Part shown: positions 8,250 to 24,601 of the stretch, piece by piece
Position numbering within the stretch: the first letter of the stretch is position 1
Layout of the letters: each line of letters starts with the position of its first letter
Origin: Candidatus Cybelea sp.
Lineage (GTDB): Bacteria; Vulcanimicrobiota; Vulcanimicrobiia; Vulcanimicrobiales; Vulcanimicrobiaceae
Direction of reading: 5' to 3'
DNA: 64,000 nt
Assembly: GCA_049578945.1 (NCBI GenBank)
Contig: JBAUMX010000101.1
Location: 8,864-72,863 of the forward strand
The notes under the pieces: model-generated
The model's input: the letters and a program-made list of their open reading frames with translations, nothing else
What the model was told of the DNA's origin: nothing
The model's database searches: none
Position numbers and translations under genes: made by a program

Positions 8250-9814
8250 ACAATCTCTCCTCCAAGCATCGTCATCAGACTCTCGGTGTTGGGCAGATCA
8301 CCGGCGGCGCACGTAAAAATGTCTTGCGAGAGCATGGCCAAGTCCGCGAGCTTACCGGGTTCAAGCGTACCTTTCTCGGTTTCTTGAGACTCCGCGTATG
8401 CCGAGCCGCGCGTGTATGCTTCTATAGCTTGTTCGCGTGTGATTGCTTCTTCCGGTCGCACCGGGTTGTTCGTCGCAAACATGACACCTAAGAATGGGTT
8501 GATCGGGCCGTCGGATCCCAGAGCAAGTGGAATGCCGGCTTCGATCAGCGAGCGCACCGGTAGATAGTCGTGCCGCGGCCCAAAACGCTCCGCTAAGACG
8601 GGGGCAAATGAGAGATGCGTCGGGTTCCCAACGACAACCACACCCTGCGCTAGCGCGCGTGGAATGAGGTCGGCCTTCAGACCCCACCCGTGTTCGATTC
8701 GCACGCGCCGACGAGTCAATGCGGTTACATCGGCCTCTGACTCCAGAGCGCAAAGGAACGCATCGATCGTCGCGTCTCCGACGGCATGTACCAGCAACTG
8801 GTCGTTGCCAGCAAAAGAATCTCGCAGCATCGCGAGCATCTTACTGTACGGTAAGTACATTTGGCCGCGCCATCCGGGGCGGTCCCGATAATCCGAACGA
8901 ACTGCGGCGCGCCTTTCGAGCGGCGTCCCATCGAGAAGCCACTTCGTCCCAGAAATCCGAATGCGCTCACCTAGGTGAAGCTGCGTCCGAACCTCGGCAT
9001 TTTCGTCAAGCATGCGAGCATGCAATGAAGTACCAAGAAAACGAATGACACGCGCGCGAATCGGTAGGTGCGCTGCATAGAGGTTTTGCGCATAGTCTTC
9101 GGGATTCAACGGCGACATAATCTGCATTGACGTGATGCCAAGACGCGTGGCCTGCTGCCCCATCGTTCGCGCACTCGATACGCGCTCCGGCTCAGATTCG
9201 ATCAGCGCGAAATAGCACCAATGCATCCATTGCGCATAGCCAAAAAGTTTACCCGATACTCTGTTTGATCGGGGTAGACGTTCGCAGCATCCGCCAAAGG
9301 GATCCGGTTGCTCATCCCCGATTTGCAAGGCCGCCATAGCCGCGCTATTAACTACACTACCGTGACCGAAGTATGACGTTAGATGCACGGGATGATTCGG
9401 AGCGACCTTGTCGAGATCGATTCGCGTTGCACGCGGATCGTTGACGACATTTATTCCATGCGTCCCGAGAATCCAACTGCCTTTCGGAACATTCTTCGAG
9501 ACTTCGGCTACTGCATCGACGATCTCATCCCAGCTTGGTTCCAAGTGCGAAATCGGCAGCACGGCAACGCGAGGGTTGGGCACGTGGTGAAAGTGCGCAT
9601 CGTTGATGCCGGGAATGACCGTGCGGCCTTTAAGATCGATCGTGCGCGTGCGGGTTCCCGCGAGCGCGTGGACTTGGTTTGTCGCACCGACCGCGACAAT
9701 TCTCTCGCCGGTGATCGCCAGAGCCTCGACAAAACCCAGCGAGGTACTACCCGTAAAACATTTACCGTTTAAGAGCACGATGTCGGGATTCGCGGTCAAG
9801 GCAGTCTCACGCAT
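8237..9814 (-). CDS. amidohydrolase family protein (YtcJ-like, amidohydrolase_3)
   Basis: About 525 aa. Has IPGINDAHFHH (metal-binding HxH) and a C-terminal ...GSDGP...LEPGKLADL... region. I prefer the ATG at 9814, 8 nt after GAGGAGAG, over the TTG at 9820. This start overlaps the stop of the upstream regulator. Confidence 0.85.
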   Translation of the reverse strand: MRETALTANPDIVLLNGKCFTGSTSLGFVEALAITGERIVAVGATNQVHALAGTRTRTIDLKGRTVIPGINDAHFHHVPNPRVAVLPISHLEPSWDEIVDAVAEVSKNVPKGSWILGTHGINVVNDPRATRIDLDKVAPNHPVHLTSYFGHGSVVNSAAMAALQIGDEQPDPFGGCCERLPRSNRVSGKLFGYAQWMHWCYFALIESEPERVSSARTMGQQATRLGITSMQIMSPLNPEDYAQNLYAAHLPIRARVIRFLGTSLHARMLDENAEVRTQLHLGERIRISGTKWLLDGTPLERRAAVRSDYRDRPGWRGQMYLPYSKMLAMLRDSFAGNDQLLVHAVGDATIDAFLCALESEADVTALTRRRVRIEHGWGLKADLIPRALAQGVVVVGNPTHLSFAPVLAERFGPRHDYLPVRSLIEAGIPLALGSDGPINPFLGVMFATNNPVRPEEAITREQAIEAYTRGSAYAESQETEKGTLEPGKLADLAMLSQDIFTCAAGDLPNTESLMTMLGGEIVYSG

Positions 9815-12353
9815 GAACAAATCTCTCCTCGGCCGCAGACAACGCTTCCTCGACGGCCTGATCTTCAGTCATTGCTGCACCGACCGCCATCAGCTTTGCG
9901 GTCGTATCGGCGCCCATCGCCTCGCGCACGATGTTAAGCACTCGATCGTGTTCCTGTTGTTGCCAGAGCACTACTGCCGAGCCCGTCGTCGCGAGGCGTG
10001 CATCGATGAAGCCCAAAATCCGCGCGGCTCTTGCATACGGCGATGACGCGCGCAGCGACTCGGCTCGCGGCCGCAATACGGCGATCGCCGCGAGACGCTG
10101 GAGCGCCCACACGGCGTACACGTCCCTCTGGTAATCGCGCGCCAGGATGAGCGCTTCGCGCGCCCGTACCCAGGCCTCGTCGTATCGAGCCAACGCAATA
10201 AGATACCCCGACATGCTGCTAAGCAGAACGACATCGAAGGAGTTCATCTCTTTGCATCGGCGAACCAGAGCGAGCCCTTCCTCCACGTGTTGAAGTGCTA
10301 ACTGCGGATTACCCGCGAGAAACTCGCACATGCTTAGGTCCGCCATCGCCACACCTCTAGCACGCTCAGTACCCATTGCTTCGTAGATATGCAGTGCCTC
10401 TGCAACGCAGCTGCGCGCCGAGATAATGTCGCCGTCTAGCGAAGCGAAGTACCCGCAGCAGCGCAGTATGTACGCGGCGAGACGGCGATTGTCTAATCTG
10501 CGGGCCGCCGTCAGCGCTTCTTCTTGCAACAGCTTAGCTTCGGCAAATCGGTCAAGCGATGCCAACGCATAGCCCGCAAGACTCTGCGCGCGAGCGACTC
10601 CCAGCGCGTCATCGAGGGTTCGGTAGAGCGCGATAGCGTTTTGGGCACTCTTAAGCTGCGTCTCGTAGTCACGCAGATGCCAGGCGACGGTCGCCTCCGC
10701 CAAGCTGAGACTCGCGCGCACGTCGGTCGGCGTCTGCTCGTCAATTAGCCGGCACGCAGCCTCTAGCCAACGCCGCCCTTCCAGCGGCGTAAAATATTCC
10801 CAGAGTACGCGAAGCCCACCAACGAGCCGTTGTCCTAAGACCACGTTGCCGCGCGCGGTCAGTGACCAACGCATCGCCGCCCGCCAGTTGTCCACTTCGT
10901 TTCGGCCTAGGTCGAGCCATACGCCGTCAGGCTCAGCATCGTATGCGCGCTCGAGCTGCTCCGCCAGGACCAAACATGCGACCGCATGACGGCCGGCCAC
11001 CCTTTGCCGTTCCCCGCGCGTAGCGAGCTTCTCAGCCGCATACTGCCGGAACGACTCTAGGAGCCAATAGCGCGGCTCGCTTCCGTCAAGATCTGCCGTT
11101 ACCATCGACTTGTCAACGAGCGATGAGTTGAGGTTAACGATGTCGGCCGTCGCGAGCTCTTCGCCGGCGCAGACCGCTTCCGCGCTGGCCAGCGTGCAGC
11201 CGCCGGCAAAGACCGAGAGGCGCTCAAAAAGCCGCTGCTCCCCTGCAGAAAGAGAGTCGTAACTCCAATCGATCGTCGCGCGCATGGTCTGCTGACGCGG
11301 CAGGGCCGTGCGCTCGCCGCCGGCGAGAACTCTAAAGCGATCTTCGAGCCTGGTCGTGAGCGCCGTGATCGACAGTGAGTTCACTCGAGCGGCGGCCAGT
11401 TCGATCGCTAGCGGAATGCCGTCCAAGTGCCCGCAGAGTGCGGCCACGTCACACGCATTTTCATCCGTGAGCGTAAATCGATGATCGACGGCGCGAGCGC
11501 GATCGCTAAAGAGCGCGATCGCCCCATACGTCGTAGCATCCGTTGCGCGCAGCTGAGTGGCTGCCTCGGGCGATGGGAAACTCAGTGGAGGTAGCCGGTA
11601 TGAACGTTCACCCGCAGACCGCAGTGGTGCGCGGCTGGTCGCAAGGATCCGAAGGTCCGGGCAGCCCGCTAGTAGGGCATGGACAACCGTCGCAGCCTGC
11701 GTTATGAGATGCTCGCAGTTGTCGAGCACCAGCAACGGCGACTTGTTCCTGAGATAAGCCAGCAGCGTCCCGAGCAGCGGACGGTTGGACACTTCTTGCA
11801 CGCCCAAACTCGAAGCGATCGCCGCGGCAACAAAAGATGGATCGCCTACCGGCGCTAGCGCGACGAACCAGACCCCATCGTTAGCGGTGTCATTCGGCAC
11901 AGTGGCGACGCGCAGCGCCATCTGGGTCTTGCCGACTCCTCCGCTTCCGGTGAGCGTAACCAGCCGATGCTCGCGTAGGAGTGCAGCGATCTCCTCTAGC
12001 TCACGTTCGCGCCCCACAAAACTGGCCAGCGAGAGCGGCAGGTTTGATGGAGCTGCGCCAACCCAAGGACCCACAGTAACCGGGGCTCCGCCGTCGCGCA
12101 GCAACACCCAGCGCGCAGCGGCCGCCTCAAGCTCCCTGCGCTGCTCGTCGTCAAGCGCCAGCGCACTGGCCAACAGCGCAAGCGTCGCGCGCTGTGGCGT
12201 GCGGCGATACCCTCGCTCCAACGCTCTGATTCCATGCGCGCTCATCCCGGCGCGTTCGGCGAGGCCCTCTTGTGAGAGTCCCGCGGCGAGACGAAAGCTG
12301 CGGAGGAGCATCCCGAAATCCGATGGGCCTGCAGCTTGGCCCTCGTTTTCCAC
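9807..12353 (-). CDS. STAND-type transcriptional regulator: XRE-family HTH + NB-ARC-like P-loop NTPase + TPR (paralog 1)
   Basis: N-terminal HTH: FRLAAGLSQEGLAERAGMSAHGIRALERGYRRTPQRATL. Then FVGRERELEEI, Walker A GSGGVGKTQ, Walker B-like LLVLDNCEH, and a long TPR-like C-terminus. The start is moved to GTG 12353 (VENEGQAAGPSDFG) because it aligns with MEKEGRAAGPPDFG of paralog 2 and the upstream nucleotides are also homologous. Confidence 0.88.
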   Translation of the reverse strand: MENEGQAAGPSDFGMLLRSFRLAAGLSQEGLAERAGMSAHGIRALERGYRRTPQRATLALLASALALDDEQRRELEAAAARWVLLRDGGAPVTVGPWVGAAPSNLPLSLASFVGRERELEEIAALLREHRLVTLTGSGGVGKTQMALRVATVPNDTANDGVWFVALAPVGDPSFVAAAIASSLGVQEVSNRPLLGTLLAYLRNKSPLLVLDNCEHLITQAATVVHALLAGCPDLRILATSRAPLRSAGERSYRLPPLSFPSPEAATQLRATDATTYGAIALFSDRARAVDHRFTLTDENACDVAALCGHLDGIPLAIELAAARVNSLSITALTTRLEDRFRVLAGGERTALPRQQTMRATIDWSYDSLSAGEQRLFERLSVFAGGCTLASAEAVCAGEELATADIVNLNSSLVDKSMVTADLDGSEPRYWLLESFRQYAAEKLATRGERQRVAGRHAVACLVLAEQLERAYDAEPDGVWLDLGRNEVDNWRAAMRWSLTARGNVVLGQRLVGGLRVLWEYFTPLEGRRWLEAACRLIDEQTPTDVRASLSLAEATVAWHLRDYETQLKSAQNAIALYRTLDDALGVARAQSLAGYALASLDRFAEAKLLQEEALTAARRLDNRRLAAYILRCCGYFASLDGDIISARSCVAEALHIYEAMGTERARGVAMADLSMCEFLAGNPQLALQHVEEGLALVRRCKEMNSFDVVLLSSMSGYLIALARYDEAWVRAREALILARDYQRDVYAVWALQRLAAIAVLRPRAESLRASSPYARAARILGFIDARLATTGSAVVLWQQQEHDRVLNIVREAMGADTTAKLMAVGAAMTEDQAVEEALSAAEERFVHA

Positions 12354-12393
12354 GGTATTGGGAAGTTCGGGCCAAGCTCCGCAACACCCCCAG

Positions 12394-12506
12394 AGGCCGA
12401 GCGCCGCCAAGTTGTGCGGGTGGTTGTGCCTTGCTGCCGTCTCGGTGCGCGTTATGATTGCCTTGCGGCGAGGCAGCAGTCTTGGCGCACTTGCGAAGGA
12501 GCTTTT
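12394..12506 (+). promoter_or_regulatory. conserved promoter/leader module, copy 1 (upstream of S53 peptidase 1; divergent to regulator 1)
   Basis: Core AAGTTGTGCGGGTGGTTGTG at 12409..12428. -35-like TTGCTG at 12431..12436 and -10-like TATGAT at 12453..12458. SD context TGCGAAGGAGCTTTTATG ends at the ATG at 12507. Same block structure as the copies at 15081, 19385 and 20890. Confidence 0.6.
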
Positions 12507-13709
12507 ATGCTGCGAAGCTTAAAATTGTTTGCGCCGTTCGCTGCCGCACTCATGGTCGCGGGATGCGGTGCCGGGGGTTCCGGCGTGCCGGCGACGATCG
12601 GCCAATCAACGTCGGAAGCGCACCCGATCCCGCAGTGGCAGGCGCAGAACCTTGCCCGGCGGGCCTGTCCTGATGCGGCCCCCGGTGAGATGCAGTGTCA
12701 GCTGCTGATTTTAAACAGGAGCCCTCAAGACAAAGAGCCGGGGTGGGGGGCGCGAGATATCGAGGCGGCCTATAACTTCCCTTCGTCGAGCAAGGGCGCC
12801 GGACAGATCGTCGCGATTGTCGACTACAACGATAATCCCAACGTCGGCTCGGACCTCGCGGTGTATCGCCGGCACTACGGTCTGCCGAAGGCGAAGTTCT
12901 ACAAATACAATCAGGACGGCCAACAGGGCCACTATCCCACGGGCCAGGTAGCCGACGGCCGTGAGATCGACCTGGACGTGGAGATGGTTTCGGCCGCGTG
13001 TCCGAACTGCACGATCTATCTCATCGAGTCAAACAACAGCGGCCCTCGCTCGACCGAAAAAGCCGAGAGCGAAGCGGTGACACTGGGCGCACATATCGTC
13101 AGCAACAGCGGTATATGCGAAGGCTTTACGGGTTGCGACGAGAGCAAAGCATTCAAGACTCCAGGCGTAACCTACGTTGCAGCCGCAGGCGACTCTGCCT
13201 ACGGCATCGGATCACCGATGGCGCTCGCGACCGTCGTTTCGGTCGGCGGCACGCTGCTGTCAAAAAGCGGGTCGACTTATAGCGAAATCGTCTGGCCCGA
13301 TTCGGGCGGCGGCTGCGCAACGCAGGTCGCCAAACCGTCGTGGCAGCACGACTCCGGGTGCTCCGGACGCACGACAAACGACGTTTCAGCGGTCGCTTGG
13401 AACGTCGCGATGTACGATACGTACGGCGAAGGTGGTTGGACTAGAATCGGCGGCACGAGCGTTGCGACGCCGATTGTGGCTTCTGCGTTTGCGCTCGCCG
13501 GCAATGCCACGAAACAAGAAGGCGGTAAAATCTTCTGGACGTTAAGAGAAAAGAAACTCCAGCGGTTTCTGCACGTCATCAGCAGCGGCACCAACGGTTG
13601 CCCCCACGACCTCGAGGGCAGCTACCTCTGCACCGCCGGAACCGACGAGTTCGGTAGTTATTCCGGTCCGACCGGCTGGGGCACGCCCAATGGCATCGGC
13701 GCGTTCTGA
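12507..13709 (+). CDS. S53 (sedolisin/kumamolisin-like) serine peptidase, lipoprotein (paralog 1)
   Basis: Start taken at ATG 12507 (MLRSLKLFAPFAAALMVAGC, lipobox). GQIVAIVDYNDNPNVGSDLAVYRRHYGLP matches the S53 N-terminal catalytic-domain pattern. EIDLDVE supplies the Glu/Asp pair, AAAGDSAYG the oxyanion Asp, and IGGTSVATP the nucleophile Ser. Confidence 0.8.
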   Translation: MLRSLKLFAPFAAALMVAGCGAGGSGVPATIGQSTSEAHPIPQWQAQNLARRACPDAAPGEMQCQLLILNRSPQDKEPGWGARDIEAAYNFPSSSKGAGQIVAIVDYNDNPNVGSDLAVYRRHYGLPKAKFYKYNQDGQQGHYPTGQVADGREIDLDVEMVSAACPNCTIYLIESNNSGPRSTEKAESEAVTLGAHIVSNSGICEGFTGCDESKAFKTPGVTYVAAAGDSAYGIGSPMALATVVSVGGTLLSKSGSTYSEIVWPDSGGGCATQVAKPSWQHDSGCSGRTTNDVSAVAWNVAMYDTYGEGGWTRIGGTSVATPIVASAFALAGNATKQEGGKIFWTLREKKLQRFLHVISSGTNGCPHDLEGSYLCTAGTDEFGSYSGPTGWGTPNGIGAF

Positions 13710-13742
13710 CGTGAATCTACGAATGAAAGGAAACCCGGCGCC

Positions 13743-14945
13743 ATGCACTTTTCATTAGCGACTTCGAATCGCGCCTCGCTCGGTCTCGTCGCCGCACTGC
13801 TCGCGGGGTGTTCCAACACATCGTCCGACTCCCAGGTCCTGCCATTCGGTTCGCCCGGCACAACACAATCGGCTGCTCGTCAGCGTGGCGGCCCCGACAA
13901 TGTCGTGCAGTTCGTCTACGTGGCGAACTCGGGCTCCAACAACGTCTCCGCCTATAGCATCGGGGCCGGCGGCGCCCTCACACCGTTGTCCGGCTCGCCA
14001 TTTAGAGCGGGCGCCGGTGCGTACGGCATTGCGGTCGATCCGACCGGCGCGTTCGCGTATGTAGCGAATTTTAATTCCAACAACGTTTCGGCTTACACGA
14101 TCGATTCGATCAGCGGCGTCTTGACAAAGGTAAAGGGGTCGCCGTTCGCTGCCGGCAGTGGCGCCACAAGCGTTGCGATGGATCCTACGGGCAAGTTCGC
14201 CTACGTGGCGAACTTTAGTTCTAACAACGTTTCTGCTTATACAATCGACGCGACGAGCGGCGCACTGACGCCGATTGACGGATCACCATTTAACGTGGGC
14301 GCCGCGCCTGAAACGGTAGCAATCGATCCTAGCGGCAAGTTTGCCTACGTCCCAAACGGCGGCTCCAACAATGTTTCCGCCTTTGCCCTCGACGCTGCCA
14401 GCGGTGCGTTGAAAACGATCAAAGGCTCACCGTTCAAGGCGGGCACGACCCCGGTCAGCATGACAATCGATCCGACCGGCAAGTTCGCTTATGCAGCTAA
14501 CTTTTGGTCTGACAACATTTCCGGCTATGCCATTGACCCAACCAGCGGCGCACTGAGAATGCTTCCTGGTTCGCCTCTCGTGGGTTCCCCCGAAGGTGTC
14601 GCGGTGAGCCCGACCGGCAGATTCGCCTACGTACTTAACGATGGCAGCAAAGCCAGCCCGAGCATCTCAGGCTACAGCATCGACTCGACGAGAGGCACGT
14701 TGACGCCGGTGCCGGGGTCGCCATTTCTAGACACGGGCTCATTCGCGTTAGGTGGCGTAGTCGATGCCACGAGCAGGTTTGCGTATATTGCAAACGACGG
14801 CTCGAGCAACGTTTCCGCCTATACGATCGCGCCCAACGGCGCGCTCAAGAAGGTGAAGGGGTCGCCGTTTGCCGCCGGCAGCTATCCCGCCAGCATCGCC
14901 GCGTGCCGAGTCAAGGCCGGCAAATGCATTCCGCCGCCATTGTAG
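13743..14945 (+). CDS. lactonase-like 7-bladed beta-propeller (YVTN-type repeat) lipoprotein (paralog 1)
   Basis: Signal peptide with lipobox LLAGCSN. About 7 repeats of the form (F)AYVANxxSNNVSAYxIDxxSGALTPxxGSPFxAGxxPxxxAxDPTGKF. The 33-nt junction with the S53 gene is conserved in the second cassette. Confidence 0.8.
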   Translation: MHFSLATSNRASLGLVAALLAGCSNTSSDSQVLPFGSPGTTQSAARQRGGPDNVVQFVYVANSGSNNVSAYSIGAGGALTPLSGSPFRAGAGAYGIAVDPTGAFAYVANFNSNNVSAYTIDSISGVLTKVKGSPFAAGSGATSVAMDPTGKFAYVANFSSNNVSAYTIDATSGALTPIDGSPFNVGAAPETVAIDPSGKFAYVPNGGSNNVSAFALDAASGALKTIKGSPFKAGTTPVSMTIDPTGKFAYAANFWSDNISGYAIDPTSGALRMLPGSPLVGSPEGVAVSPTGRFAYVLNDGSKASPSISGYSIDSTRGTLTPVPGSPFLDTGSFALGGVVDATSRFAYIANDGSSNVSAYTIAPNGALKKVKGSPFAAGSYPASIAACRVKAGKCIPPPL

Positions 14946-15025
14946 AGGAGCACTCACGTCGGAATGCCGTCACTTAAGCTCTAAGCGTCTGCGCTGCCGC
15001 TGCGACAGGTCGCACACTTAAACAC
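14946..15025 (+). pseudogene. decayed 5' remnant of the small-lipoprotein family seen intact-ish at 23509
   Basis: GGAGCACTC..GT..ATG followed by GCTCTAAGCGTCTGCGCTGCCGCTGCG. This is about 23/27 identical to GCTCTAAGCGTTTGCGTTGCAGCCGCC in the signal-peptide region of the 23509 gene. Here it is out of frame with its ATG (14964) and runs into a TAA after 6 codons. Confidence 0.4.
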
Positions 15026-15070
15026 GGCTTCGCGATTTCGCGAGGCCGTCGTTCTATCTGTGTTTTCACG
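15026..15070 (+). terminator. putative intrinsic terminator after propeller gene 1
   Basis: GGCTTCGCG-ATTT-CGCGAGGCC gives a 9-bp stem with one G-U pair (15026..15047). It is followed by the T-rich GTCGTTCTATCTGTGTTTTC and lies immediately upstream of leader copy 2. Confidence 0.45.
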
Positions 15071-15080
15071 ACCGAGAAGT

Positions 15081-15216
15081 CTAGCGCCGGCAAGTTGTGC
15101 GGGTGGTTGTGTCTTCCTGCGGTGCCGCTACGCCGTCATGATGGTGTGACGAAGGCAGTCGGCGGTGCGCGTTTGCGAACACGAAGGTTGCCAGCTGCAA
15201 AAAGGAGCAGTTTTAG
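15081..15216 (+). promoter_or_regulatory. conserved promoter/leader module, copy 2 (upstream of HAF-repeat lipoprotein)
   Basis: Core AAGTTGTGCGGGTGGTTGTG at 15092..15111. TTCCTG at 15114..15119 and TCATGAT at 15136..15142. SD context TGCAAAAAGGAGCAGTTTTAGATG. The leader is longer and more diverged than in copies 3 and 4. Confidence 0.55.
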
Positions 15217-16554
15217 ATGAACATCTCAAATTCGGTTTCTTATGCGTTGGGCGTATTATCGGCTGCAGCGATACTTGGCGGCTGTAGCAACGGCGAGTCG
15301 CCGTCGAACTTCGCCCCTTCAGGAGCGACGCAGCAGAGCGCTACCCAAGCGGTATCCAATGCCCAAGCCCGAGGAAGCGTCACTCAGTATTACCTCATCA
15401 ATCTCGGCGTTATTGGCGGAAAGTATTCGGCCGACCGCGGCATTAACAATAAGGGCTGGATCACCGGCTTTTCCACACTGCGGGGAAGCAAGAGTGCACA
15501 CGCCGTTCTGTGGCGAGCCGGACGCCTCACTGACCTCGGCACGCTCGGGGGCCCGAACAGTGCCTTCGGCGGCCCCGTTAAGAATACGCGCGGCGAGCTC
15601 GCGGGAGCCTCTCAAGTCTCCCAAACCGACCCGTATCTGGAAAACTTTTGCAGCTTTTCGAGTATATTCGACCAGACCCATCTCTGCCAGGGGTTTCGCT
15701 GGCAGAATGGCGTGATGACGGCGCTTCCGACGTTAGGCGGAAACAACAGCATTGCCAACGGCGTGAACAACGGCGGTCAGATCGTGGGTGCGGCCGAAAC
15801 CAGCACCAGAGGCCACCGCTGCGGTAAACCTCAACGCTTCGATTACTACGGGATGATCTGGCAGCCGAACGGCACGACGGTCACTCTGCCACCGTACCCC
15901 GGCGACACCATTTCCCTTGCGGAAGCGATCAGCAATAGCGGTGATGTCGTAGGGTACTCCGGCCGCTGCGGAAACCTCGACGACGCTTCAACGGCGCGAC
16001 ACGCATTGCTCTGGCAGAGCGGCTCGGCGATCGACCTCGGCAATCTCGGGGGCACCGTGAACAACGTCCCGCGTGCGATCAATAACCGGGGGCAGATCGT
16101 GGGAAATTCCGAAGTTGCGGGAAACGCGACCTCGCATGCCTTCCTCTGGCAAAACGGCGTGATGAGCCACCTCGGCACGCTGCCCGGCGATGTCTTTAGC
16201 GAAGCCAACGGGATAAACGACAAAGGCCAGATCGTCGGCGTGTCCTGCCCCGCGAGCGGAACCTGCCGCGGTTTCATTTGGCAAAATGGCTCGATGACCG
16301 ACCTAAACCTCCTGGTGCCACCGAAGTCACTGTATGTATTTTACGGCGAAGACATCAACGATAGCGGGCAGATCACCGCCATTGCAACAAATACGACGAA
16401 GCCGGTCTTTACGCAACGAGCGGTCGTGCTGATTCCGGGGAAAAAATCCGACGTGATCCCCGGTTCGGCTGCGCGTCCGGTCACGCTGCCCGAAAGCGTG
16501 CGAGTACAGCTCCGGCAACTCCAAGGTATAGCTCGCCCATTCGCGAGCTTGTAA
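15217..16554 (+). CDS. HAF-family extracellular repeat lipoprotein
   Basis: Lipobox ILGGCSN. Repeats of the type HA(V/L/F)LWxxGxxxDLGTLGGxxSxAxxINNxGQIVGxS, including a literal SHAFLWQNGVMSHLGTLPG. Confidence 0.8.
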   Translation: MNISNSVSYALGVLSAAAILGGCSNGESPSNFAPSGATQQSATQAVSNAQARGSVTQYYLINLGVIGGKYSADRGINNKGWITGFSTLRGSKSAHAVLWRAGRLTDLGTLGGPNSAFGGPVKNTRGELAGASQVSQTDPYLENFCSFSSIFDQTHLCQGFRWQNGVMTALPTLGGNNSIANGVNNGGQIVGAAETSTRGHRCGKPQRFDYYGMIWQPNGTTVTLPPYPGDTISLAEAISNSGDVVGYSGRCGNLDDASTARHALLWQSGSAIDLGNLGGTVNNVPRAINNRGQIVGNSEVAGNATSHAFLWQNGVMSHLGTLPGDVFSEANGINDKGQIVGVSCPASGTCRGFIWQNGSMTDLNLLVPPKSLYVFYGEDINDSGQITAIATNTTKPVFTQRAVVLIPGKKSDVIPGSAARPVTLPESVRVQLRQLQGIARPFASL

Positions 16555-16566: not shown

Positions 16567-16590
16567 GCGGGCCCGCTCCAGCGGGCCCGC
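16567..16590. terminator. perfect 10-bp GC hairpin between convergent genes
   Basis: GCGGGCCCGC-TCCA-GCGGGCCCGC sits 13 nt after the HAF gene stop. There is no clean U-run on either side, so its terminator function is inferred only from position. Confidence 0.4.
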
Positions 16591-16821: not shown

Positions 16822-19341
16822 CTATATTTCCGACGCTTCCGCGACGGCCTGATGTTCCGTCATCGCTGCGCCATCGGCCATCAGGTTCGCGACCAGCTCG
16901 GCGCCCATTGCATCGCGCAGCACGGCGAGGACCCGATCGTATTCTTGTTTTCCTAGAATCTCGCGCGCAAACCCCATTGCTGCGATTTGGGCGTCGGCGA
17001 AACCCAAGATCCGCGCGGCTCGAGCGTAAGCTTTGGGCGTGCCTTCTGCGCCGACTTGCGGCGTCAGCGCTGCCACGTATCCGAGATGCTGTAGCGCATA
17101 CATGGCGAAAGCGTCGTGGCCGCGTTCACGCGCCAGGGCGAGCGCCTCGCGTGCGCGTTCTTGAGCCTCGTCGTACCGAGCCGATGAGACGAGAAATAGC
17201 GATGCGTTATTAGTAAGTACTAAGCGGACGATTCGCGTTTCGTTGAGCGCGCCCAGAACAGCAAGCGCGTTCGTTGAATGGTGAACTGCTAGTTCTCCGT
17301 TGCCCGTCTGATATTCGACCTCAGCAAGGTCATCTTCCACCATTGCAACCATGAGTTTGTTACCAATCGCCTCACATATCACCAGCACTTCGGCAAGGTA
17401 ACCGCGGGCCGCGATGAGATCACCAGCCCTAGCACTGGCATATCCAAGGCAGCGCAATGTGAAGAGGATCAGCCGACGATTCTCAAGTCGGCGAGCGACC
17501 GCAAGCACTTCTTCGAGCCGCGGCTTTGCCTCTGCACCGCGTCCAAGAGCCGTGAGCGCATAACCCGCGATGCTCTGCGCGCGGGCGGCTCCGAGCAAGT
17601 CCCCGACGGCGCGGTAGGACGCGATAGCGCTCTCGCTATTCGAAAGCATTATTTTGGGTTCGCCGAAATCCGTAGCGTTCATAGCCTCGCTCAGACTAAG
17701 CCCGGCAAGAACGCTCGTTGGGGTTTGCTCGTCAACCAAGTCGCGCGCCGCTCCGAGCCAGCGCCGCGCTTCAACGCTCGCGAAACTTCGCCAAACCACA
17801 CTGAACTCCCCGAGGAGTCGTTGCCCCAATACAACGTCGCCACTGTCAGCAAGTGCCCATCGCAATGCAGTCCGCCAGTTGTCGAGCTCCTCGCGAGCAA
17901 TCACGCGCCAAACCCCTTCAGACTCGCTCTCATCCATGCGTTCGAGCCGCTCGGCGAGTTGAAAGTATCCGTGGGCATGACGGTGCGCTATAGAGTGCAG
18001 CTCGCCGCGCATCGCGAGTTTTTCCCGCGCGTACTGCCGAAACGACTCCAAGAGCCGATAGCGCGGCTCGATGCCGTCAAAATCTGCGATGACCATCGAC
18101 TTGTCGGCAAGAGATGAGATGTGGTTGACGATTTCGGCCGTCGCAACGTCTTCGCCGGCGCAAACCGCTTCCGCGCTGACCAGCGTACAGCCGCCCGCGA
18201 AGACCGAGAGGCGCTCGAAAACGCGCTGCTCCGACGCAGAGAGCAGATTGTAACTCCAATCGATCGTCGCGCGCATGGTCTGCTGTCGGGGCAACGCCGT
18301 GCGCTCGCCGCCGGCGAGAACTCTAAAGCGATCTTCGAGCTTCTCCGCTAGCGCTGTAATCGATAGCGCGTTTACTCGAGCGGCGGCCAGTTCAATCGCC
18401 AGCGGAATGCCGTCCAAGCGCCGGCAGAGGTCGGCCAAAGCAGGAGCAGTTTCGTCGGTGAGCGTGAACCGATGGTCGACGGCGCGAGCGCGATCGCGGA
18501 AGAGTACGATGGCTCCATACGCCGTGGCATCCGTTGCGCACAGCCGAGCAACTGCCCCGCGCGATGGTGTACTCAAGGACGGGAGTCGGTAGGTACGTTC
18601 GCCAGCGGCGCGCAGCGGTTCGCGGCTGGTCGCGAGGATCCGAAGGTGCGGGCAGCCTGCGAGGAGAGCGTAGGAAACCGTCGCAGCCTGCGTAACGACG
18701 TGCTCGCAGTTATCGAGAAGCAGCAGCATCGCCCTATTCTTGAGATGCGCTAGCAGCGTCTCAAGCGTGGAACGATTTGGCGCCTCTTGCACGTGCAGCG
18801 CCGAGGCAATCGCGGCCGGCACTAATGAGGGATCGCTGAGCGGCGAGAGTCCGACGAACGACACGGTGCAGGCATCGCTGAGCGCGGTTGCGACCTGTAG
18901 CGCGGTCTGGGTCTTGCCGACTCCTCCACTTCCCGTGAGCGTGACCAGGCGATGCTCGCGTACGAGCGTTGCGATCTCATTGAGCTCACGTTCGCGACCA
19001 ACGAAGCTGGCCAACGAGAGCGGCAGAACCGAGCTAGGCGTGTCGGACCACGGGCCTGCGAGGACCGAGGCTCTCCCTCCATCGCGCAGCAACACCCAGC
19101 GCGCAGCGGCCACCTCGAGCTCCTGGCGCTGCTCGTCGCTAAGCGCCAACGCACCAGCCAGCAGCGCGAGCGTTCCGCGTTGCGGCGTGCGGCGATATCC
19201 ACGCTCCAGCGCTCTGATTCCATGAACGCTCATCCCGGCGTGTTCGGCGAGCGCCTCTTGCGAGAGTCCCGCGACGAGCCGGAAGCTGCGCAGGAGCGCC
19301 CCGAAATCAGGCGGGCCCGCAGCGCGGCCCTCCTTTTCCAT
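16822..19341 (-). CDS. STAND-type transcriptional regulator: XRE-family HTH + NB-ARC-like P-loop NTPase + TPR (paralog 2)
   Basis: 839 aa and colinear with 9807..12353 over the full length. Identical runs include RFRVLAGGERTALPRQQTMRATIDWSY and LSVFAGGCTL. Walker A GSGGVGKTQ; LLLLDNCEH. Confidence 0.9.
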   Translation of the reverse strand: MEKEGRAAGPPDFGALLRSFRLVAGLSQEALAEHAGMSVHGIRALERGYRRTPQRGTLALLAGALALSDEQRQELEVAAARWVLLRDGGRASVLAGPWSDTPSSVLPLSLASFVGRERELNEIATLVREHRLVTLTGSGGVGKTQTALQVATALSDACTVSFVGLSPLSDPSLVPAAIASALHVQEAPNRSTLETLLAHLKNRAMLLLLDNCEHVVTQAATVSYALLAGCPHLRILATSREPLRAAGERTYRLPSLSTPSRGAVARLCATDATAYGAIVLFRDRARAVDHRFTLTDETAPALADLCRRLDGIPLAIELAAARVNALSITALAEKLEDRFRVLAGGERTALPRQQTMRATIDWSYNLLSASEQRVFERLSVFAGGCTLVSAEAVCAGEDVATAEIVNHISSLADKSMVIADFDGIEPRYRLLESFRQYAREKLAMRGELHSIAHRHAHGYFQLAERLERMDESESEGVWRVIAREELDNWRTALRWALADSGDVVLGQRLLGEFSVVWRSFASVEARRWLGAARDLVDEQTPTSVLAGLSLSEAMNATDFGEPKIMLSNSESAIASYRAVGDLLGAARAQSIAGYALTALGRGAEAKPRLEEVLAVARRLENRRLILFTLRCLGYASARAGDLIAARGYLAEVLVICEAIGNKLMVAMVEDDLAEVEYQTGNGELAVHHSTNALAVLGALNETRIVRLVLTNNASLFLVSSARYDEAQERAREALALARERGHDAFAMYALQHLGYVAALTPQVGAEGTPKAYARAARILGFADAQIAAMGFAREILGKQEYDRVLAVLRDAMGAELVANLMADGAAMTEHQAVAEASEI

Positions 19342-19384
19342 AATATTGTGAAGTTCGCGCCAAGCTTGGTGCCACCCGCTGAGG

Positions 19385-19496
19385 GCGACTGCCGGAAACT
19401 TGTGCGGGTGGTTGTGTCTTGTTGCGCTTTCGATGCGGCGTCATGATTACGTTGCGATGAGGCAACCGCCTTACCGCGCTGCAAAGGAGCATTTGT
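19385..19496 (+). promoter_or_regulatory. conserved promoter/leader module, copy 3 (upstream of GloVer-repeat lipoprotein; divergent to regulator 2)
   Basis: Core AACTTGTGCGGGTGGTTGTG at 19397..19416. TTGTTG at 19419..19424 and TCATGATT at 19441..19448. Hairpin GTTGC-GATGAG-GCAAC. SD context TGCAAAGGAGCATTTGTATG. Confidence 0.6.
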
Positions 19497-20837
19497 ATGA
19501 AGAGAATCTCACGCGTCTGTTGCGCTCTCAGCGTTTGCGCGACCGCTGCGGTCGTTACCGGTTGCGGCGGCGCGGCCCAGCTCCCAAGCCCTATGGCTCA
19601 GACGCCGTTCGGCAACACAAGCACGGTCGACCGAGTCGCTTCCTCAAGCGGCACCGCGAAGGATGCAGAGCGGACTCGTTATACGAAAACGATCCTCTAT
19701 AGCTTCCGGAGCGGAAACGACGGAATAGGCCCGTCCGGGCGTCTGCTCGACGAGGGCGGCACGTTCTACGGCGAGACCGCCGGTGGTGGAGGCTCGAGCG
19801 GGTGCTACAATCCGGGTCCCGGGTGCGGCACAATCTTCAAGTTGACGCCTTCCGGAAAAAAGTACGCGGAGACTATTCTCTATCGATTCGGGGGCCCGAA
19901 CGGAAACGACGGTCAGGTTCCGTCTGGCGGCGTTGTGTACAAAAGCGGTGCACTCTTTGGTACGACCAGTTTTGGCGGTAACTACAACCTCTACGCATGC
20001 TACAACATCGGTTGCGGAACGGTTTTTAAACTTCCGCTTTCTGGGAGCGGCTCCGAGCAGATACTCTTCGCTTTCTCCGGAACCAACGGCGCCCTTGTCT
20101 CGAGGGGCGTCATCGATAAGGGCGGCACGCTCTTCGGAACGACCAACTATGAAGGTGAGTACGGCTACGGAACGGTGTTCGACCTGACGCCATCCGGAGC
20201 AGGCTATACCGAGAACACGTTGCACGAATTCGCGGACGGAAACGACGGAGCGCTATCACCGGCCGGCGTCATCGACGTCGATGGATCGCTCTACGGCGTG
20301 ACCGGAGTGGGCGGAGCGCACAATTACGGCACGGTGTACAGACTGACGCCTTCCGCTAGCGGCTACACTGAGACTATTCTCTATAGCTTTACCGGGGGAA
20401 GCGACGGTAAGAATACGGGCGCAGGCGTCATCGATGTTAAGGGATCTCTGTATGGCACGACCGGCGGCGGCGGAGCGCACAATTTCGGGACCGTGTTCAA
20501 GCTGACGCCCTCCGGTAGCGGCTATGTTGAGAGCACACTTTACAGTTTCAAAGGAGGAAGGGACGCCGCAGGCACCTACTCGACCCTTACTGAACAGGGC
20601 GGCACGATCTACGGCACGAGCGAACACGGCGGACTTGTCAACTATGGGACGGTATTCAAGTTGACGCCTTCGGGCAGCGGCTACACCGAAAGCGTCATCT
20701 ACCGTTTCAAGGGCGGAACGGACGGCGCGGATCCATATTGGGGTGTGGTCGCCGACAAGAACGGTACGCTTTACAGCACAACGGCGACCGGCGGCCCGTT
20801 CGGCAACGGAACCGTCTTCGCGTTGACCCCGCACTAG
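19497..20837 (+). CDS. Gloeo_Verruco (GloVer) tandem-repeat lipoprotein
   Basis: Lipobox VVTGCGG. About 8 repeats of the type G(T/S)LYGTTxxGGxxxYGTVFKLTPSGSGYTExxLYSFxGGxDGxxP. Confidence 0.75.
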   Translation: MKRISRVCCALSVCATAAVVTGCGGAAQLPSPMAQTPFGNTSTVDRVASSSGTAKDAERTRYTKTILYSFRSGNDGIGPSGRLLDEGGTFYGETAGGGGSSGCYNPGPGCGTIFKLTPSGKKYAETILYRFGGPNGNDGQVPSGGVVYKSGALFGTTSFGGNYNLYACYNIGCGTVFKLPLSGSGSEQILFAFSGTNGALVSRGVIDKGGTLFGTTNYEGEYGYGTVFDLTPSGAGYTENTLHEFADGNDGALSPAGVIDVDGSLYGVTGVGGAHNYGTVYRLTPSASGYTETILYSFTGGSDGKNTGAGVIDVKGSLYGTTGGGGAHNFGTVFKLTPSGSGYVESTLYSFKGGRDAAGTYSTLTEQGGTIYGTSEHGGLVNYGTVFKLTPSGSGYTESVIYRFKGGTDGADPYWGVVADKNGTLYSTTATGGPFGNGTVFALTPH

Positions 20838-20889
20838 GAGCCCTGTTGTGTCCTAACCTCGCACTCTTGGCAGGCTCGAGCCGAGGTTC

Positions 20890-21018
20890 CAACCACCCGT
20901 ACAAAGCCGAGCGCCGGCCAAGTTGTGCGGGTGGTTGTGTCTTGTTGCGACCTCCGGACGCTGTCATGATTGAGTTGCGATGAGGCAACCGCCTTGCCGC
21001 GCTTGCGAAGGAGCTTTT
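20890..21018 (+). promoter_or_regulatory. conserved promoter/leader module, copy 4 (upstream of S53 peptidase 2), with upstream inverted partner
   Basis: Core AAGTTGTGCGGGTGGTTGTG at 20920..20939. TTGTTG at 20942..20947 and TCATGATT at 20964..20971. Same GTTGC-GATGAG-GCAAC hairpin as copy 3. SD context TGCGAAGGAGCTTTTATG. CAACCACCCGTACAA at 20890..20904 is the near-perfect reverse complement of the core. Confidence 0.6.
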
Positions 21019-22233
21019 ATGCTGCGAAGCTTTAAATTGTTCGCGACATTCGCTGCTGCACTCGGCATCGCGGGCTGCAATGCCGCCGGCTCCCCCAGTG
21101 TGCCGGGAGCGATTGGCCAATCTGCGTCGCCGACGCACTCGATCCCTCAATGGCAGGCACAGAACCTCGCGCGGCGCGCTTGTCCAGAAGCAGGTCCCGG
21201 CGACGCTCAATGCGAGGCTCTGATCATAAACAAGAGCCCTGAAAGCAGGGCGTCCGGCTGGGGTCCCCGCGATATTGAGGCCGCGTATGGCCTTCCATCG
21301 TCGAGCAAAGGCGCGGGGCAGATCGTCGCGATCATCGACTACAACGACAACCCCAACGTCGCCTCCGATCTCGCCGTGTACCGGCGCCATTACGGTCTGC
21401 CGAAGGCGAAATTCTACAAGTTCAACCAGGACGGGCAACAGGGCCACTATCCTAAGGGCCAGGTAGAAGACGGCGGTGAGATCGACCTCGACGTCGACAT
21501 GGTTTCGGCGGCTTGTCCGAACTGCACGATCTATCTGATCGAGTCCAACAACAACGGCATTCATTCACTTGAAAAAGCCGAAGCAGAGGCAGTAAAGCTG
21601 GGCGCGCACATTATCAGCAACAGCTTCATATGTTATCACTCGCAGGATTGTGGCGACCCCAACGTTTCAAGCTACTTCGACAGCCCGGGCGTAACGTATC
21701 TTGGCGCCGCGGGCGACATCGCTTATGGCGTGGGAGCGCCGAGCGCACTCGCAAGCGTCGTCTCGATCGGCGGCACCCTCCTCTCCAAGAGCGGCTCGAT
21801 CTATAGCGAGGTTGTCTGGCAAGATACCGGCGGCGGCTGCGCTACACAAATTACCAAGCCGTCGTGGCAGCACGATCCTGGCTGCTCCGGACGCACGGCC
21901 AACGACATCTCCGCCGTCGCTTGGGATGTCGCCACCTACGACACGTACGGCAGCGGCGGCTGGAATACCAACGGCGGCACAAGCAGCGCCACACCAATCA
22001 TTGCCGGCGCGTTTGCGCTTGCCGGCAACGCCGAAAAACAAAACGGCGACGAAATCCTCTGGACGTTAGCGGAAAAGAACCGTCAGCGGGATCTGCACGT
22101 CATTAGCAGCGGCAACGACGGTTGTCCTCACGACCTCAGGGGCAGCTATCTCTGCACTGCCGGAACCGATGAGTTTGGAACTTACTCAGGCCCAGCCGGC
22201 TGGGGAACTCCCAACGGAACCGGCGCCCTCTGA
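21019..22233 (+). CDS. S53 (sedolisin/kumamolisin-like) serine peptidase, lipoprotein (paralog 2)
   Basis: Start taken at ATG 21019 (MLRSFKLFATFAAALGIAGC). Long identical runs with paralog 1 (NPNV.SDLAVYRRHYGLPKAKFYK, MVSAACPNCTIYLIESNN). EIDLDVD, AAGDIAYG and NGGTSSATP are present. Confidence 0.8.
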   Translation: MLRSFKLFATFAAALGIAGCNAAGSPSVPGAIGQSASPTHSIPQWQAQNLARRACPEAGPGDAQCEALIINKSPESRASGWGPRDIEAAYGLPSSSKGAGQIVAIIDYNDNPNVASDLAVYRRHYGLPKAKFYKFNQDGQQGHYPKGQVEDGGEIDLDVDMVSAACPNCTIYLIESNNNGIHSLEKAEAEAVKLGAHIISNSFICYHSQDCGDPNVSSYFDSPGVTYLGAAGDIAYGVGAPSALASVVSIGGTLLSKSGSIYSEVVWQDTGGGCATQITKPSWQHDPGCSGRTANDISAVAWDVATYDTYGSGGWNTNGGTSSATPIIAGAFALAGNAEKQNGDEILWTLAEKNRQRDLHVISSGNDGCPHDLRGSYLCTAGTDEFGTYSGPAGWGTPNGTGAL

Positions 22234-22265
22234 ACCTCGCTACGAGTGAAAGGAAACTCGGCACC

Positions 22266-23489
22266 ATGCGCTTACCAATAGCTAGCGCCAATCGCGCATC
22301 GATCGTTCTCATGGCAGTGCTGCTCGCGAGCTGCTCCAACACATCGCCCGGCTCGCAGGCCCTGCCGCTCGGTTCGCCCGGTGCCGAGCCGTTAGCGCAT
22401 CGTCCCGGCGGCAGCGTCGACGTCGCCGTGCAGTACGCGTACGTGGCAAATTTTAGTTCCGGCAACGTCTCCGCTTTCGCGATTGCGGCCGACGGCGCGT
22501 TGACGCCGGTTGGGGGCTCGCCGTTTAAGGCGGACAAGGATTCCTATGGCCTGGCAATTGACCCTGTGGGCAGGTTCGTCTACGTTACGAACTTTGGCTC
22601 CAGCAACGTTTCTGCCTTTGCCGTCGACGCGGCTAGCGGCGCGCTGAAAAAGGTACGCGGATCCCCATTTGTGACTGGTGCGGGTCCCATCGGCCTTGCC
22701 GTCGACCCGACGGGCAAGTTCGCCTATATAAGCGACGGTAATTCCAACAACGTTTCTGCCTATGCGATTGACGCCAGCACTGGTGCGCTGACGCCGATTG
22801 CGGGATCGCCGTTTCGCGCGGGCCACAACCCCTATGGAGTGACGGTCGACGGCAAGGGCAAATTCGTTTACGTTCCCGGCGAACTGTCCAACTCGGTTGC
22901 GGCGTTCGCCATCGACGCGACGACCGGCGCGCTGACGCCAGTGAAGGGGTCGCCGTTTGCGGCGGGCATCGGACCGGAGAGCGTCACACTAGATCCCAGC
23001 GGAAAGTTCGCGTACGTCGCGAGCTGGGAGTCCCAAAATGTTTATGGCTTCGCGGTTGATGCAGCCAGCGGGGCGCTGAAGCCGTTAGCGGGATCGCCGT
23101 TTGCGGACCAGGCTTCCGGTCCTGCACAAATAGTGGTCACTCCTACGGGCAGATACGCCTATCTGACTAACTCTGCCGTGTGCGGCGGTTGCGGGGGCGG
23201 CCGCCACATTGGCGGGTATTCGATTGACTCGGCGCGAGGTACGTTGACCCCGCTGCCGGGATCACCGTTTAAGGACGTGGGCATTGGCCCCCTGGGTGAG
23301 GCCATCGATCCCAGAGGCAAGTTCGTCTACATCACAAACATCGATACGAACAACATTTCGGTCTACGCGGTCGCGAGCAGCGGCGCGCTCAAGAAGGTGA
23401 AGGGGTCGCCGTTTGCGGCCGGCACTACGCCAGCCGGCATCTCCGTGTGCCGGGTAACGGCCGGCAAATGCATCCCCGCGCCGTTATAG
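22266..23489 (+). CDS. lactonase-like 7-bladed beta-propeller lipoprotein (paralog 2)
   Basis: Lipobox LLASCSN. Same repeat type as 13743..14945. The C-terminal tail CRVTAGKCIPAPL matches CRVKAGKCIPPPL of paralog 1. Confidence 0.8.
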   Translation: MRLPIASANRASIVLMAVLLASCSNTSPGSQALPLGSPGAEPLAHRPGGSVDVAVQYAYVANFSSGNVSAFAIAADGALTPVGGSPFKADKDSYGLAIDPVGRFVYVTNFGSSNVSAFAVDAASGALKKVRGSPFVTGAGPIGLAVDPTGKFAYISDGNSNNVSAYAIDASTGALTPIAGSPFRAGHNPYGVTVDGKGKFVYVPGELSNSVAAFAIDATTGALTPVKGSPFAAGIGPESVTLDPSGKFAYVASWESQNVYGFAVDAASGALKPLAGSPFADQASGPAQIVVTPTGRYAYLTNSAVCGGCGGGRHIGGYSIDSARGTLTPLPGSPFKDVGIGPLGEAIDPRGKFVYITNIDTNNISVYAVASSGALKKVKGSPFAAGTTPAGISVCRVTAGKCIPAPL

Positions 23490-23508
23490 CTCGCACGGGA
23501 GCACTCGT

Positions 23509-24075: not shown

Positions 24076-24094
24076 GCAAAGGAGCATTTGTACG

Positions 24095-24601
24095 ATGGCA
24101 ATTTCAGCTAACCATTAAGCACGCAGTTGCGCTGCGGCCGCGCTGCTTGCGGGCTGTCGCGGCCCGGCGCAGTTCCCGGATCCGGCGGCGCAGCCGCCTA
24201 TCAACAACGCGCGCACCGCGGAGGTGCCGTCAAATTACTCAACCCGTGAGCGCGCAAGCTCCGATTCTTCCGGCAACGAAATTCTCAAGGGCAAGATCGA
24301 CACCCACTGCAAATATCATGCCGGATTGTTGACAACGTGTGAGTTTCACAAAAAAGGTTCCGGTAAGGCAACGGGGCCGTATCCGGGCACCTTTACCGCC
24401 AGCGGAAACTCTGAATACGATCCCTTGCAACGACCCTTCTACTTCTTCTATGAGTCTTTCGCGATAACTTCGGTATCGTCTACGATTACGGGATCCATAT
24501 CCTACGCATATTCCACTTACGAGTATACGAGTTCAGTTGGAAGTGGGACGGCGGAAGTTCACGTAGGCCACCACCTCAGCGAAACGCTGAACGGATTCTA
24601 G
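24095..24601 (+). pseudogene. paralogous small lipoprotein gene interrupted by one in-frame TAA (codon 8)
   Basis: ATG 24095 is preceded by GCAAAGGAGCATTTGTA, identical to the GloVer gene SD context. It reads MAISANH-TAA-ARSCAAAALLAGCRG (lipobox) and continues in frame into track ORF 24224..24601. No alternative start lies between the TAA and the lipobox Cys. Confidence 0.6.

Follow-up and report, generated by a model that had tools for sequence, protein, structure and literature searches.

Candidate STAND-type activators and a direct-repeat box at a conserved surface lipoprotein module of Candidatus Cybelea

A 64,000-nt stretch of DNA from the uncultured soil bacterium Candidatus Cybelea sp. 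(Eremiobacterota; assembly GCA_049578945.1, contig JBAUMX010000101.1, positions 8,864 to 72,863; hereafter the window) carries two neighboring gene cassettes, each with a regulator gene on the minus strand (REG1, REG2) that faces plus-strand genes for predicted lipoproteins: a peptidase of family S53 (S53-1, S53-2), a beta-propeller, and HAF-repeat, Gloeo_Verruco-repeat (GloVer) or small lipoproteins (Table 1). This arrangement raises the question of whether the regulators control the genes they face, and through which DNA site. Our analysis points to control of a surface lipoprotein regulon, through a direct-repeat box, by activators of the STAND class (ATPases of signal transduction that have many domains), built from an XRE-type helix-turn-helix (HTH), a domain for nucleotide binding and oligomerization (NOD) and tetratricopeptide repeats (TPR). 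We give this reading a probability of about 0.6.

The candidate regulatory site is a 20-bp box, AAGTTGTGCGGGTGGTTGTG, with the direct repeat GTTGTG-N6-GTTGTG. Allowing at most one mismatch, it matches four times in the 64 kb, always on the plus strand and always within the locus, where 0 matches are expected by chance; the copies lie about 95 nt upstream of the S53-1, HAF, GloVer and S53-2 starts. Alignment of the box regions revealed an invariant box, a non-conserved -35 region and a conserved -10 (TCATGAT/TATGAT) about 24 nt 3' of the box, a distance at which the box would cover about -56 to -37. Promoters that depend on an activator typically show such a conserved site beside a weak -35. 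The proposed promoters, whose positions at the four units are predictions read from the alignments, were not picked up by a generic sigma-70 scan. A conserved 5' leader of about 45 nt separates the predicted -10 from the Shine-Dalgarno sequence at three of the units (12459-12503, 19444-19496 and 20966-21018); it has a predicted hairpin of 13 pairs, with almost no covariation and no Rfam match.

For comparison beyond the window, the window proteins were mapped onto a comparison set of 78 S53-anchored loci from species-representative genomes (loci are given L numbers). The box was found at the same position in L001, L002/3, L011, L013-L016, L018, L020 and L024, standing in these relatives upstream of S53, HAF and glycine-rich lipoprotein genes. 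Variants of it occur in modules that are more distantly related, as CTTGTGAGGATAAGTTGTC in L008, L017 and L014a, as GTTGTATGGGTGGTTGTA in L067 and L090, and as AGTGTGCGGATAGYRTGTC in L072 and L086. These variants covary with helix 3 of the REG HTH (MSAHGIRALERGYRR versus VSSNGISALERGRRR, and so on), even inside a single genome (JBAVSO: L001, L009, L014, L018). A loose form of the motif was present upstream of 11 of 14 REG-adjacent S53 genes versus 5 of 125 others (Fisher p = 2e-10, with kinship ignored), and the five motif-bearing S53 genes that lack an adjacent REG all belong to the same S53 subclade. A metagenome contig scan anchored on the box returned two exact matches, both within modules in which REG diverges from an S53-propeller pair.

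HTH_31 was matched by both REG1 and REG2 (46.3 and 41.1 bits; cut-off 27), as were AAA_22/nSTAND1 and TPR_12; the AAA_22 score was 29.6 bits (cut-off 27), nSTAND1 was barely passed by REG1 (27.3 bits; cut-off 27.1), and TPR_12 scored 34.1 bits in REG2 (cut-off 30.1). A NOD of about 350 aa, with the motifs GSGGVGKT (Walker A) and LLVLDNCEH (Walker B), sits between the HTH and the TPR, and aligns to residues 286-615 of AfsR (NCBIfam, E = 2e-14). A search of the PDB with a single REG sequence was uninformative. The REG family profile matched the AfsR structures 8k60/8jke (E = 2e-14), the TPR domains of LGN/Pins and AfsR and, at the N-terminus, the XRE controller proteins C.AhdI/C.BclI; its TPR part also matched the Rap/NprR TPR domains weakly. 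Judged from these matches, REG1 and REG2 have the putative DNA-binding domain, NOD/P-loop NTPase and C-terminal repeat sensor of STAND transcription regulators. A sequence-only reading of the window had called them HTH-NB-ARC-TPR proteins: the STAND-type architecture with HTH, NOD and TPR holds, but the NB-ARC model itself falls below its cut-off, and "STAND/NOD" is therefore the safer label. REG2 matches, with 100% identity, a Ca. Cybelea database protein encoded on a 494-kb contig of a metagenome-assembled genome (MAG). At E<=1e-10, scores were obtained for more than 8000 REG relatives, of which the top 120 with a source name all bear the label Eremiobacterota.

The arrangement is conserved and not a one-off, as the synteny comparison proposed by the earlier reading made clear: a minus-strand REG facing a plus-strand S53 gene and propeller recurs in seven species besides the window, at L001 (twice), L002/L003, L008, L014 (twice), L015, L016, L017, L018 and L020. 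The best matches all came from Candidatus Cybelea, Tumulicola or Eremiobacterota MAGs. Up to six modules were found in one MAG, REG identity falls to about 50% across the module-bearing species, and the module-bearing S53 subclade lies at 66% identity or above. A propeller follows S53 at 10 of the 14 REG-adjacent S53 genes versus 5 of the 125 others. By this sequence comparison, the conserved core is a REG gene divergent from S53, the propeller and one or more small lipoprotein genes. HAF and GloVer, by contrast, shift or go absent in orthologous loci. HAF lies between REG1 and S53-1 in L001 and is placed differently in L003 too; GloVer is found 3' of the propeller in L001, L002, L003 and L016; and in some loci a glycine-rich ALK_LTK_GRD lipoprotein stands in place of both. 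L001 holds orthologues of both cassettes (REG1 82%, REG2 86%, S53-2 88% and S53-1 78% identity), and the duplication therefore predates speciation, with both copies kept.

In the close relative L002 the REG2 orthologue is truncated to 541 aa (7931-9556) and a frameshift divides a second copy of S53 (13843-15040), through either decay or long-read indel errors; the near-identical contig L003 has an intact REG2 (5684-8200). S53 genes at 50-60% identity occur mostly in tandem arrays of three to six copies without regulator or propeller, part of a large Eremiobacterota expansion (L030, L040, L042, L044, L048, L050, L052, L058, L062, L071, L078, L080, L081). A MobA/VirD2 relaxase or an IS110 transposase adjoins the module in some relatives (L008 14847-17315; L004 14278-15429).

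Eight REG paralogs in other genomes (55-62% identity) were examined for their neighbors. Six of them are divergent from lipoprotein-like genes, namely S53, Lactonase or NHL-type propellers, or GloVer. In five of the eight, a gene for a substrate-binding protein (SBP) of the OppA/DppA type (SBP_bac_5) is convergent with REG and abuts its 3' end, and SBP_bac_5 also stands beside REG in L004, L008 and L017. The convergent copies are found at L084 8557-10194, L085 8523-10109, L086 8520-10013, L090 7499-9091, L092 7496-8983 and L004 18362-19981, usually with overlapping stop codons and with no permease genes nearby; those of L008 (5673-7268) and L017 (5732-7333) are co-directional with REG. At L085 the SBP_bac_5/REG pair adjoins a gene (10114-14175) for a 1353-aa CarboxypepD_reg + Plug protein that resembles TonB-dependent receptors, which is a hint that Eremiobacterota may have an outer membrane and arrange uptake in a Sus-like way.

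By homology, S53-1 and S53-2 are true members of the sedolisin/kumamolisin group, in agreement with the first assignment, even if Pfam alone matches them only to Peptidase_S8. A single-sequence search of the PDB with S53-2 gave weak subtilase matches only, and a family profile was needed: built from 40 sequences, it matched, from mature residue 4 on, both kumamolisin-As (E = 2e-19) and sedolisin (E = 1e-11). Glu154, Asp158, Asp233 and Ser322 of S53-2 are invariant in the 40 homologues and align to E78, D82, D164 and S278 of kumamolisin-As, that is, to the Ser-Glu-Asp triad and the oxyanion-hole Asp. The top 16 Foldseek matches of an AlphaFold2 (AF2) model of S53-2 were all S53 structures; the model is weak (confidence score pLDDT 61, with N- and C-terminal parts <50), and the short N-terminal segment is not reliably modelled.

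This N-terminal segment had been singled out as unusually short and as bearing a Cys pair. The pair is borne out, C55 and C65 being invariant in the 40 homologues, and so is the brevity: about 58 residues separate the lipobox Cys from the catalytic domain, with no pro-domain of some 190 residues. No match to PF09286 (Pro-kuma_activ) was found in the S53 proteins, and the profile match to pro-kumamolisin 1t1e starts at 1t1e residue 186, which is query residue 73. The feature is not special to the locus, however. An exhaustive search returned 1403 S53 clusters at 50% identity (E<1e-30), many with the catalytic domain starting from residue 70-150; the short N-terminus is widespread in a very large family and therefore does not mark the locus out. 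The lipobox Cys is invariant in the family and many further Cys are conserved, which, together with the lipoboxes, fits with export. Members of the wider S53 family often carry binding domains after the catalytic one (FG-GAP propeller, ricin lectin, TIG, Ig, CarboxypepD_reg, fn3, GDSL); among 10 long homologues we found no fusion of S53 to a Lactonase-type propeller and one to an FG-GAP propeller. The idea that a small lipoprotein might serve as a pro-domain in trans found no support: both copies are disrupted while S53 is intact, the candidate has no Pfam matches, and its AF2 model (pLDDT 41) is too poor to use.

The remaining family assignments of the sequence-only reading stood up to profile searches. 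The propellers belong to the Lactonase family (PF10282, 128.8 and 138 bits; cut-off 21.7), and the two repeat proteins passed the HAF (TIGR02913, cut-off 22.65) and GloVer (TIGR03803, cut-off 44) models; scores to these three families carry no implied enzymatic function. All plus-strand products have predicted lipoprotein signals, with the lipoboxes VAGC, LAGC, LGGC, VTGC, IAGC and LASC. In related loci, the stretch 3' of the propeller usually encodes between one and three small lipoproteins, all with the leader MKTISRxxYALSVCAAAAMLAGCGG; these are beta-rich proteins of 155-200 aa, without Pfam matches, for which a homology search gave six proteins. The two of cassette B (lipoboxes LASC and LAGC, predicted to be lipidated) had been described as decayed. 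Both are in fact full length, but each is broken by a single in-frame stop, the TAA of small lipoprotein b replacing a conserved Tyr codon. The stops at 23644 and 24116 could be recent inactivations or assembly errors, the latter because related MAGs are partly long-read assemblies. In cassette A the remnant proposed earlier was recovered, and only a stretch of the leader survives there.

One leader (MKTISRxxYALSVCAAAAMLAGCGGSxQxPNP) is common to unrelated passengers: GloVer repeats, small beta-rich proteins and ALK_LTK_GRD glycine-rich proteins. It was found in the window at 19497-19580, 23509-23590 and 24095-24180, and in relatives at L008 12454-14321, L014 5668-6648 and L020 13034-13960. 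This distribution points to domains or cassettes having been shuffled behind a shared export signal.

Taken together, the region would represent two ancient paralogous copies of an Eremiobacterota-specific module, in which a one-component STAND factor stands divergent from exported lipoprotein genes. We infer that a ligand is bound by the TPR sensor of REG and that the NOD then swaps ADP for ATP and oligomerizes, as in MalT, GutR and AfsR. Head-to-tail HTH domains would bind GTTGTG-N6-GTTGTG and activate four promoters, those of S53-1/propeller 1, HAF, GloVer and S53-2/propeller 2/small lipoproteins. REG1 and REG2 probably cross-regulate all four, because their recognition helices are nearly identical and the boxes are identical (apart from the mismatch in box 3). 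The products would be lipid-anchored, extracytoplasmic proteins: a sedolisin-type serine-carboxyl peptidase without a pro-domain, a seven-bladed propeller and repeat or binding proteins. Most likely they would break down proteins at the cell surface and capture peptides, in acidic soil or peat, and the TPR sensor may in turn receive feedback from peptides or from some other product. This proposal of protein or peptide scavenging, based on the sedolisin-type peptidases, the OppA-type neighbors and the TPR sensors, is a tentative one, to which we give somewhat less than an even chance. TPR sensors typically bind peptides, and the fusion of wider S53 family members to lectin, Ig, FG-GAP-propeller and similar binding domains is a further hint in the same direction. 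A more elaborate and rather unlikely version would see multiplied "protein-utilization loci", each combining a lipid-anchored surface sedolisin that lacks a pro-domain, its propeller partner and accessory binding lipoproteins with capture of the freed peptides by the OppA-type protein encoded beside REG, with a peptide as the TPR ligand and an insulated, product-induced feed-forward circuit for each proteinaceous substrate.

Several observations weigh against the main reading. The whole intergenic region of about 160 bp is conserved (79%), and the box is not its sole constrained element; XRE HTH proteins usually bind inverted, not direct, repeats; and the box loci form one S53 subclade, such that co-inheritance could explain part of the enrichment. 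The S53-propeller pairing is not obligatory, with S53 arrays lacking a propeller and a propeller at L084 lacking S53. Furthermore, the window cassettes have no SBP_bac_5 neighbor, stop codons interrupt both small lipoprotein genes at the locus, and the Pfam NB-ARC score of the regulators is below threshold (16.7 bits; cut-off 23.5). The first three of these points, along with the presence of boxes at HAF and S53-2 without a divergent REG, would also be consistent with adjacency without control, in which another factor (an alternative sigma factor or global regulator) uses the box, or the box is simply part of a duplicated promoter cassette, and REG regulates genes elsewhere or itself. We consider this unlikely, given that box variant and REG HTH change together across paralogous modules even in one genome, that in other genomes even REG paralogs at 55-60% identity lie opposite S53, propeller or GloVer genes, and related boxes are present there, and that the only four box copies in 64 kb are all in the locus.

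Slightly less probable still is a variable surface coat or adhesion repertoire generated by cassette shuffling, with S53 as a maturation or shedding protease, a scheme under which control by REG would still be possible. Different passenger domains behind one lipoprotein leader, unit orders shuffled between close relatives, nonsense-inactivated or truncated copies, and repeat proteins (HAF, GloVer) without a known enzymatic role would all fit this scheme; however, hundreds of S53 paralogs strictly keep their catalytic residues, and tandem S53 arrays resemble enzyme diversification, the OppA-type SBP neighbors point to uptake, and no phase-variation repeats or invertible elements were seen at the locus. 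The weak match to Rap/NprR, the small exported proteins encoded 3' of the propeller and the SBP_bac_5 genes adjoining REG paralogs recall an RRNPP-like circuit, in which a small exported (lipo)protein would be cut by S53, re-imported via an Opp-like system and sensed by the REG TPR. This circuit is improbable: REG has a NOD between HTH and TPR that RRNPP proteins lack, the small genes encode beta-rich lipoproteins of 155-200 aa with no short pro-peptide gene present, and the two in the window are disrupted alongside intact REG and S53 genes. An anti-phage or conflict system (Avs/NLR-like) with protease effectors is very improbable. STAND NTPases with TPR sensors do include many defence proteins (PMC13581612), and one related module lies near a relaxase or IS110; transcription-factor STANDs nevertheless fall in non-defence clades (PMC13581612), PADLOC matched REG through generic HTH models only and the remaining genes not at all, REG begins with a DNA-binding HTH and not with a toxic effector, the supposed effectors carry predicted lipoprotein signal peptides, and the flanks are housekeeping genes.

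The layout of the locus (Table 1) largely followed the first description. The open reading frames of both cassettes lie at the coordinates first reported, with likely starts for REG1 at a GTG (12353), for S53-1 at 12504 and for S53-2 at 21019. The cassettes are indeed paralogous (REG 64%, S53 75%, propeller 56% identity), and the two related junction strings between S53 and propeller are present at 13721 and 22244. The terminator placed within cassette A corresponds to a terminator-like hairpin, and no tRNA gene was found at the locus, as had been noted. The supposed fusion of REG1 to an amidohydrolase did not survive: these are separate genes, in which the amidohydrolase start ATG overlaps the REG1 stop (ATGCGTGA), and this overlap argues for translational coupling. 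The amidohydrolase is a neighbor of REG1 kept only in orthologous loci.

Table 1. Features of the two cassettes, with positions in the window
Feature	Position	Strand	Evidence or remark
Amidohydro_3 amidohydrolase	8237..9814	-	Pfam 222.8 bits; adjoins REG1 in L002 too
REG1, XRE-type HTH, NOD, TPR; STAND-type regulator	9807..12353	-	HTH_31, AAA_22/nSTAND1, TPR_12
Box 1, AAGTTGTGCGGGTGGTTGTG, candidate REG binding site	12409..12428	+	about -56 to -37 of the predicted S53-1 promoter
Predicted S53-1 promoter	12431..12458	+	-35 TTGCTG, 16-nt spacer, -10 TATGAT/TCATGAT
S53-1, predicted lipoprotein, sedolisin-family peptidase homologue without canonical pro-domain	12504..13709	+	family profile
Propeller 1, Lactonase-type seven-bladed beta-propeller, predicted lipoprotein	13743..14945	+	PF10282; 33 nt 3' of S53-1
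Small-lipoprotein signal-peptide remnant (ALSVCAAAA)	14978..15004	+	tblastn E = 0.06, weak
Terminator-like hairpin, 11 bp, 8 GC pairs; closes the S53-1/propeller-1 unit	15024..15049	+	
Box 2, exact copy of AAGTTGTGCGGGTGGTTGTG, upstream of HAF	15092..15111	+	
HAF-repeat predicted lipoprotein, movable accessory unit	15217..16554	+	TIGR02913, 166 bits
REG2, REG1 paralog	16822..19341	-	64% identity
Box 3, AAGTTGTGCGGGTGGTTGTG with 1 mismatch, upstream of GloVer	19397..19416	+	
GloVer-repeat predicted lipoprotein, movable accessory unit	19497..20837	+	TIGR03803, 184.7 bits
Box 4, exact copy of AAGTTGTGCGGGTGGTTGTG, upstream of S53-2	20920..20939	+	
S53-2, predicted lipoprotein, sedolisin-family peptidase homologue	21019..22233	+	family profile, invariant catalytic residues
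Propeller 2	22266..23489	+	PF10282, lipobox
Small lipoprotein a, 188 codons	23509..24075	+	one in-frame TAG at 23644-23646
Small lipoprotein b, 168 codons	24095..24601	+	one in-frame TAA at 24116-24118

The locus is flanked by housekeeping genes (UvrB, Prs, L25 and Pth on one side; GlmU, GltX and methylmalonyl-CoA mutase on the other), and the GC content of the region is unremarkable. An Rfam scan of 9-26 kb matched no known RNA. The downstream boundary, kept in L001 and L002, is a minus-strand gene (24632-25762) for an M48-like membrane protein with a weak Peptidase_M48 match; it has HIAHG in place of the M48 motif HExxH and may be catalytically inactive. Elsewhere in the window, the minus strand at 59184-59738 shows weak HAF-like similarity (26% over 206 aa), possibly that of a further HAF-repeat protein.

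Control of the lipoprotein genes by REG, our preferred reading, has precedents among characterized systems. In Streptomyces coelicolor, the DNA bound by AfsR consists of two direct repeats, and these overlap a poor -35 (PMC10936776). This resembles the box that abuts a non-conserved -35 at the REG locus, and AfsR and REG both combine a NOD with C-terminal TPR, which makes AfsR the closest characterized analogue of REG. The two nevertheless differ in that AfsR has a SARP/OmpR-type DNA-binding module and REG an XRE-type HTH; the repeat period is 11 in AfsR and 12 bp here, with the center at -29.5 in AfsR and at about -46 (predicted) here; AfsR targets antibiotic regulators, as against lipoprotein genes here; and full-length REG scores far under the AfsR family cut-off (52 versus 1430 bits). 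GutR of Bacillus subtilis and MalT of E. coli, as cited in passages of PMC13581612 (MalT also in PMC4381067), provide inducer- and ATP-dependent activation of an adjacent catabolic operon. Both share with REG a DNA-binding domain, a NOD and a repeat sensor, although no close sequence relationship to REG was detected, they respond to sugars or polyols and they act on catabolic genes of the cytoplasmic or transport kind; the MalT HTH, moreover, is C-terminal and of the LuxR type. GutR has an N-terminal HTH, like REG.

Two further comparisons concern the products. The window peptidases share with kumamolisin and sedolisin (MEROPS S53) a homologous catalytic domain with aligned Glu-Asp-Ser and oxyanion Asp, but they lack Pro-kuma_activ, have extra conserved Cys and are predicted to be lipid-anchored, unlike those soluble secreted enzymes. 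The polysaccharide-utilization loci of Bacteroidota (Sus-like) place a sensor-regulator beside a surface lipoprotein battery and are multiplied and diversified in each genome. By analogy only, the modules described here likewise pair a dedicated regulator with enzyme and binding lipoproteins, and L085 has the CarboxypepD_reg-Plug protein and an SBP; the window, however, has no SusC/SusD pair, a different type of regulator and a presumed substrate that is protein or peptide rather than glycan.

The sequence-only reading had presented the locus as an operon that could not be named and a candidate undescribed system. This goes too far, as a STAND regulator with a divergent target operon is a known arrangement (AfsR, GutR, MalT): the locus is a real, lineage-wide arrangement and probably a regulon, not a new kind of system. 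No description of the REG/S53/propeller module was found in the literature searched, of which coverage was incomplete. New elements are an XRE-type HTH as DNA-binding module, a candidate operator, a proposed regulon of S53/propeller lipoproteins and the expansion of this regulon across an uncultured phylum.

Acidic peat and soils are rich in Eremiobacterota, of which hardly any have been brought into culture. The locus offers a testable regulon for this group, with a greatly expanded regulator family, a 20-bp operator candidate and defined target promoters, tied to expanded acid-type (S53) peptidases that are predicted to be lipid-anchored and that lack the classical pro-domain. Confirmation would extend the few characterized STAND transcription factors by an XRE-HTH class and would point to a protein- or peptide-scavenging strategy, and the box and its regulator would provide handles for regulon prediction in metagenomes.

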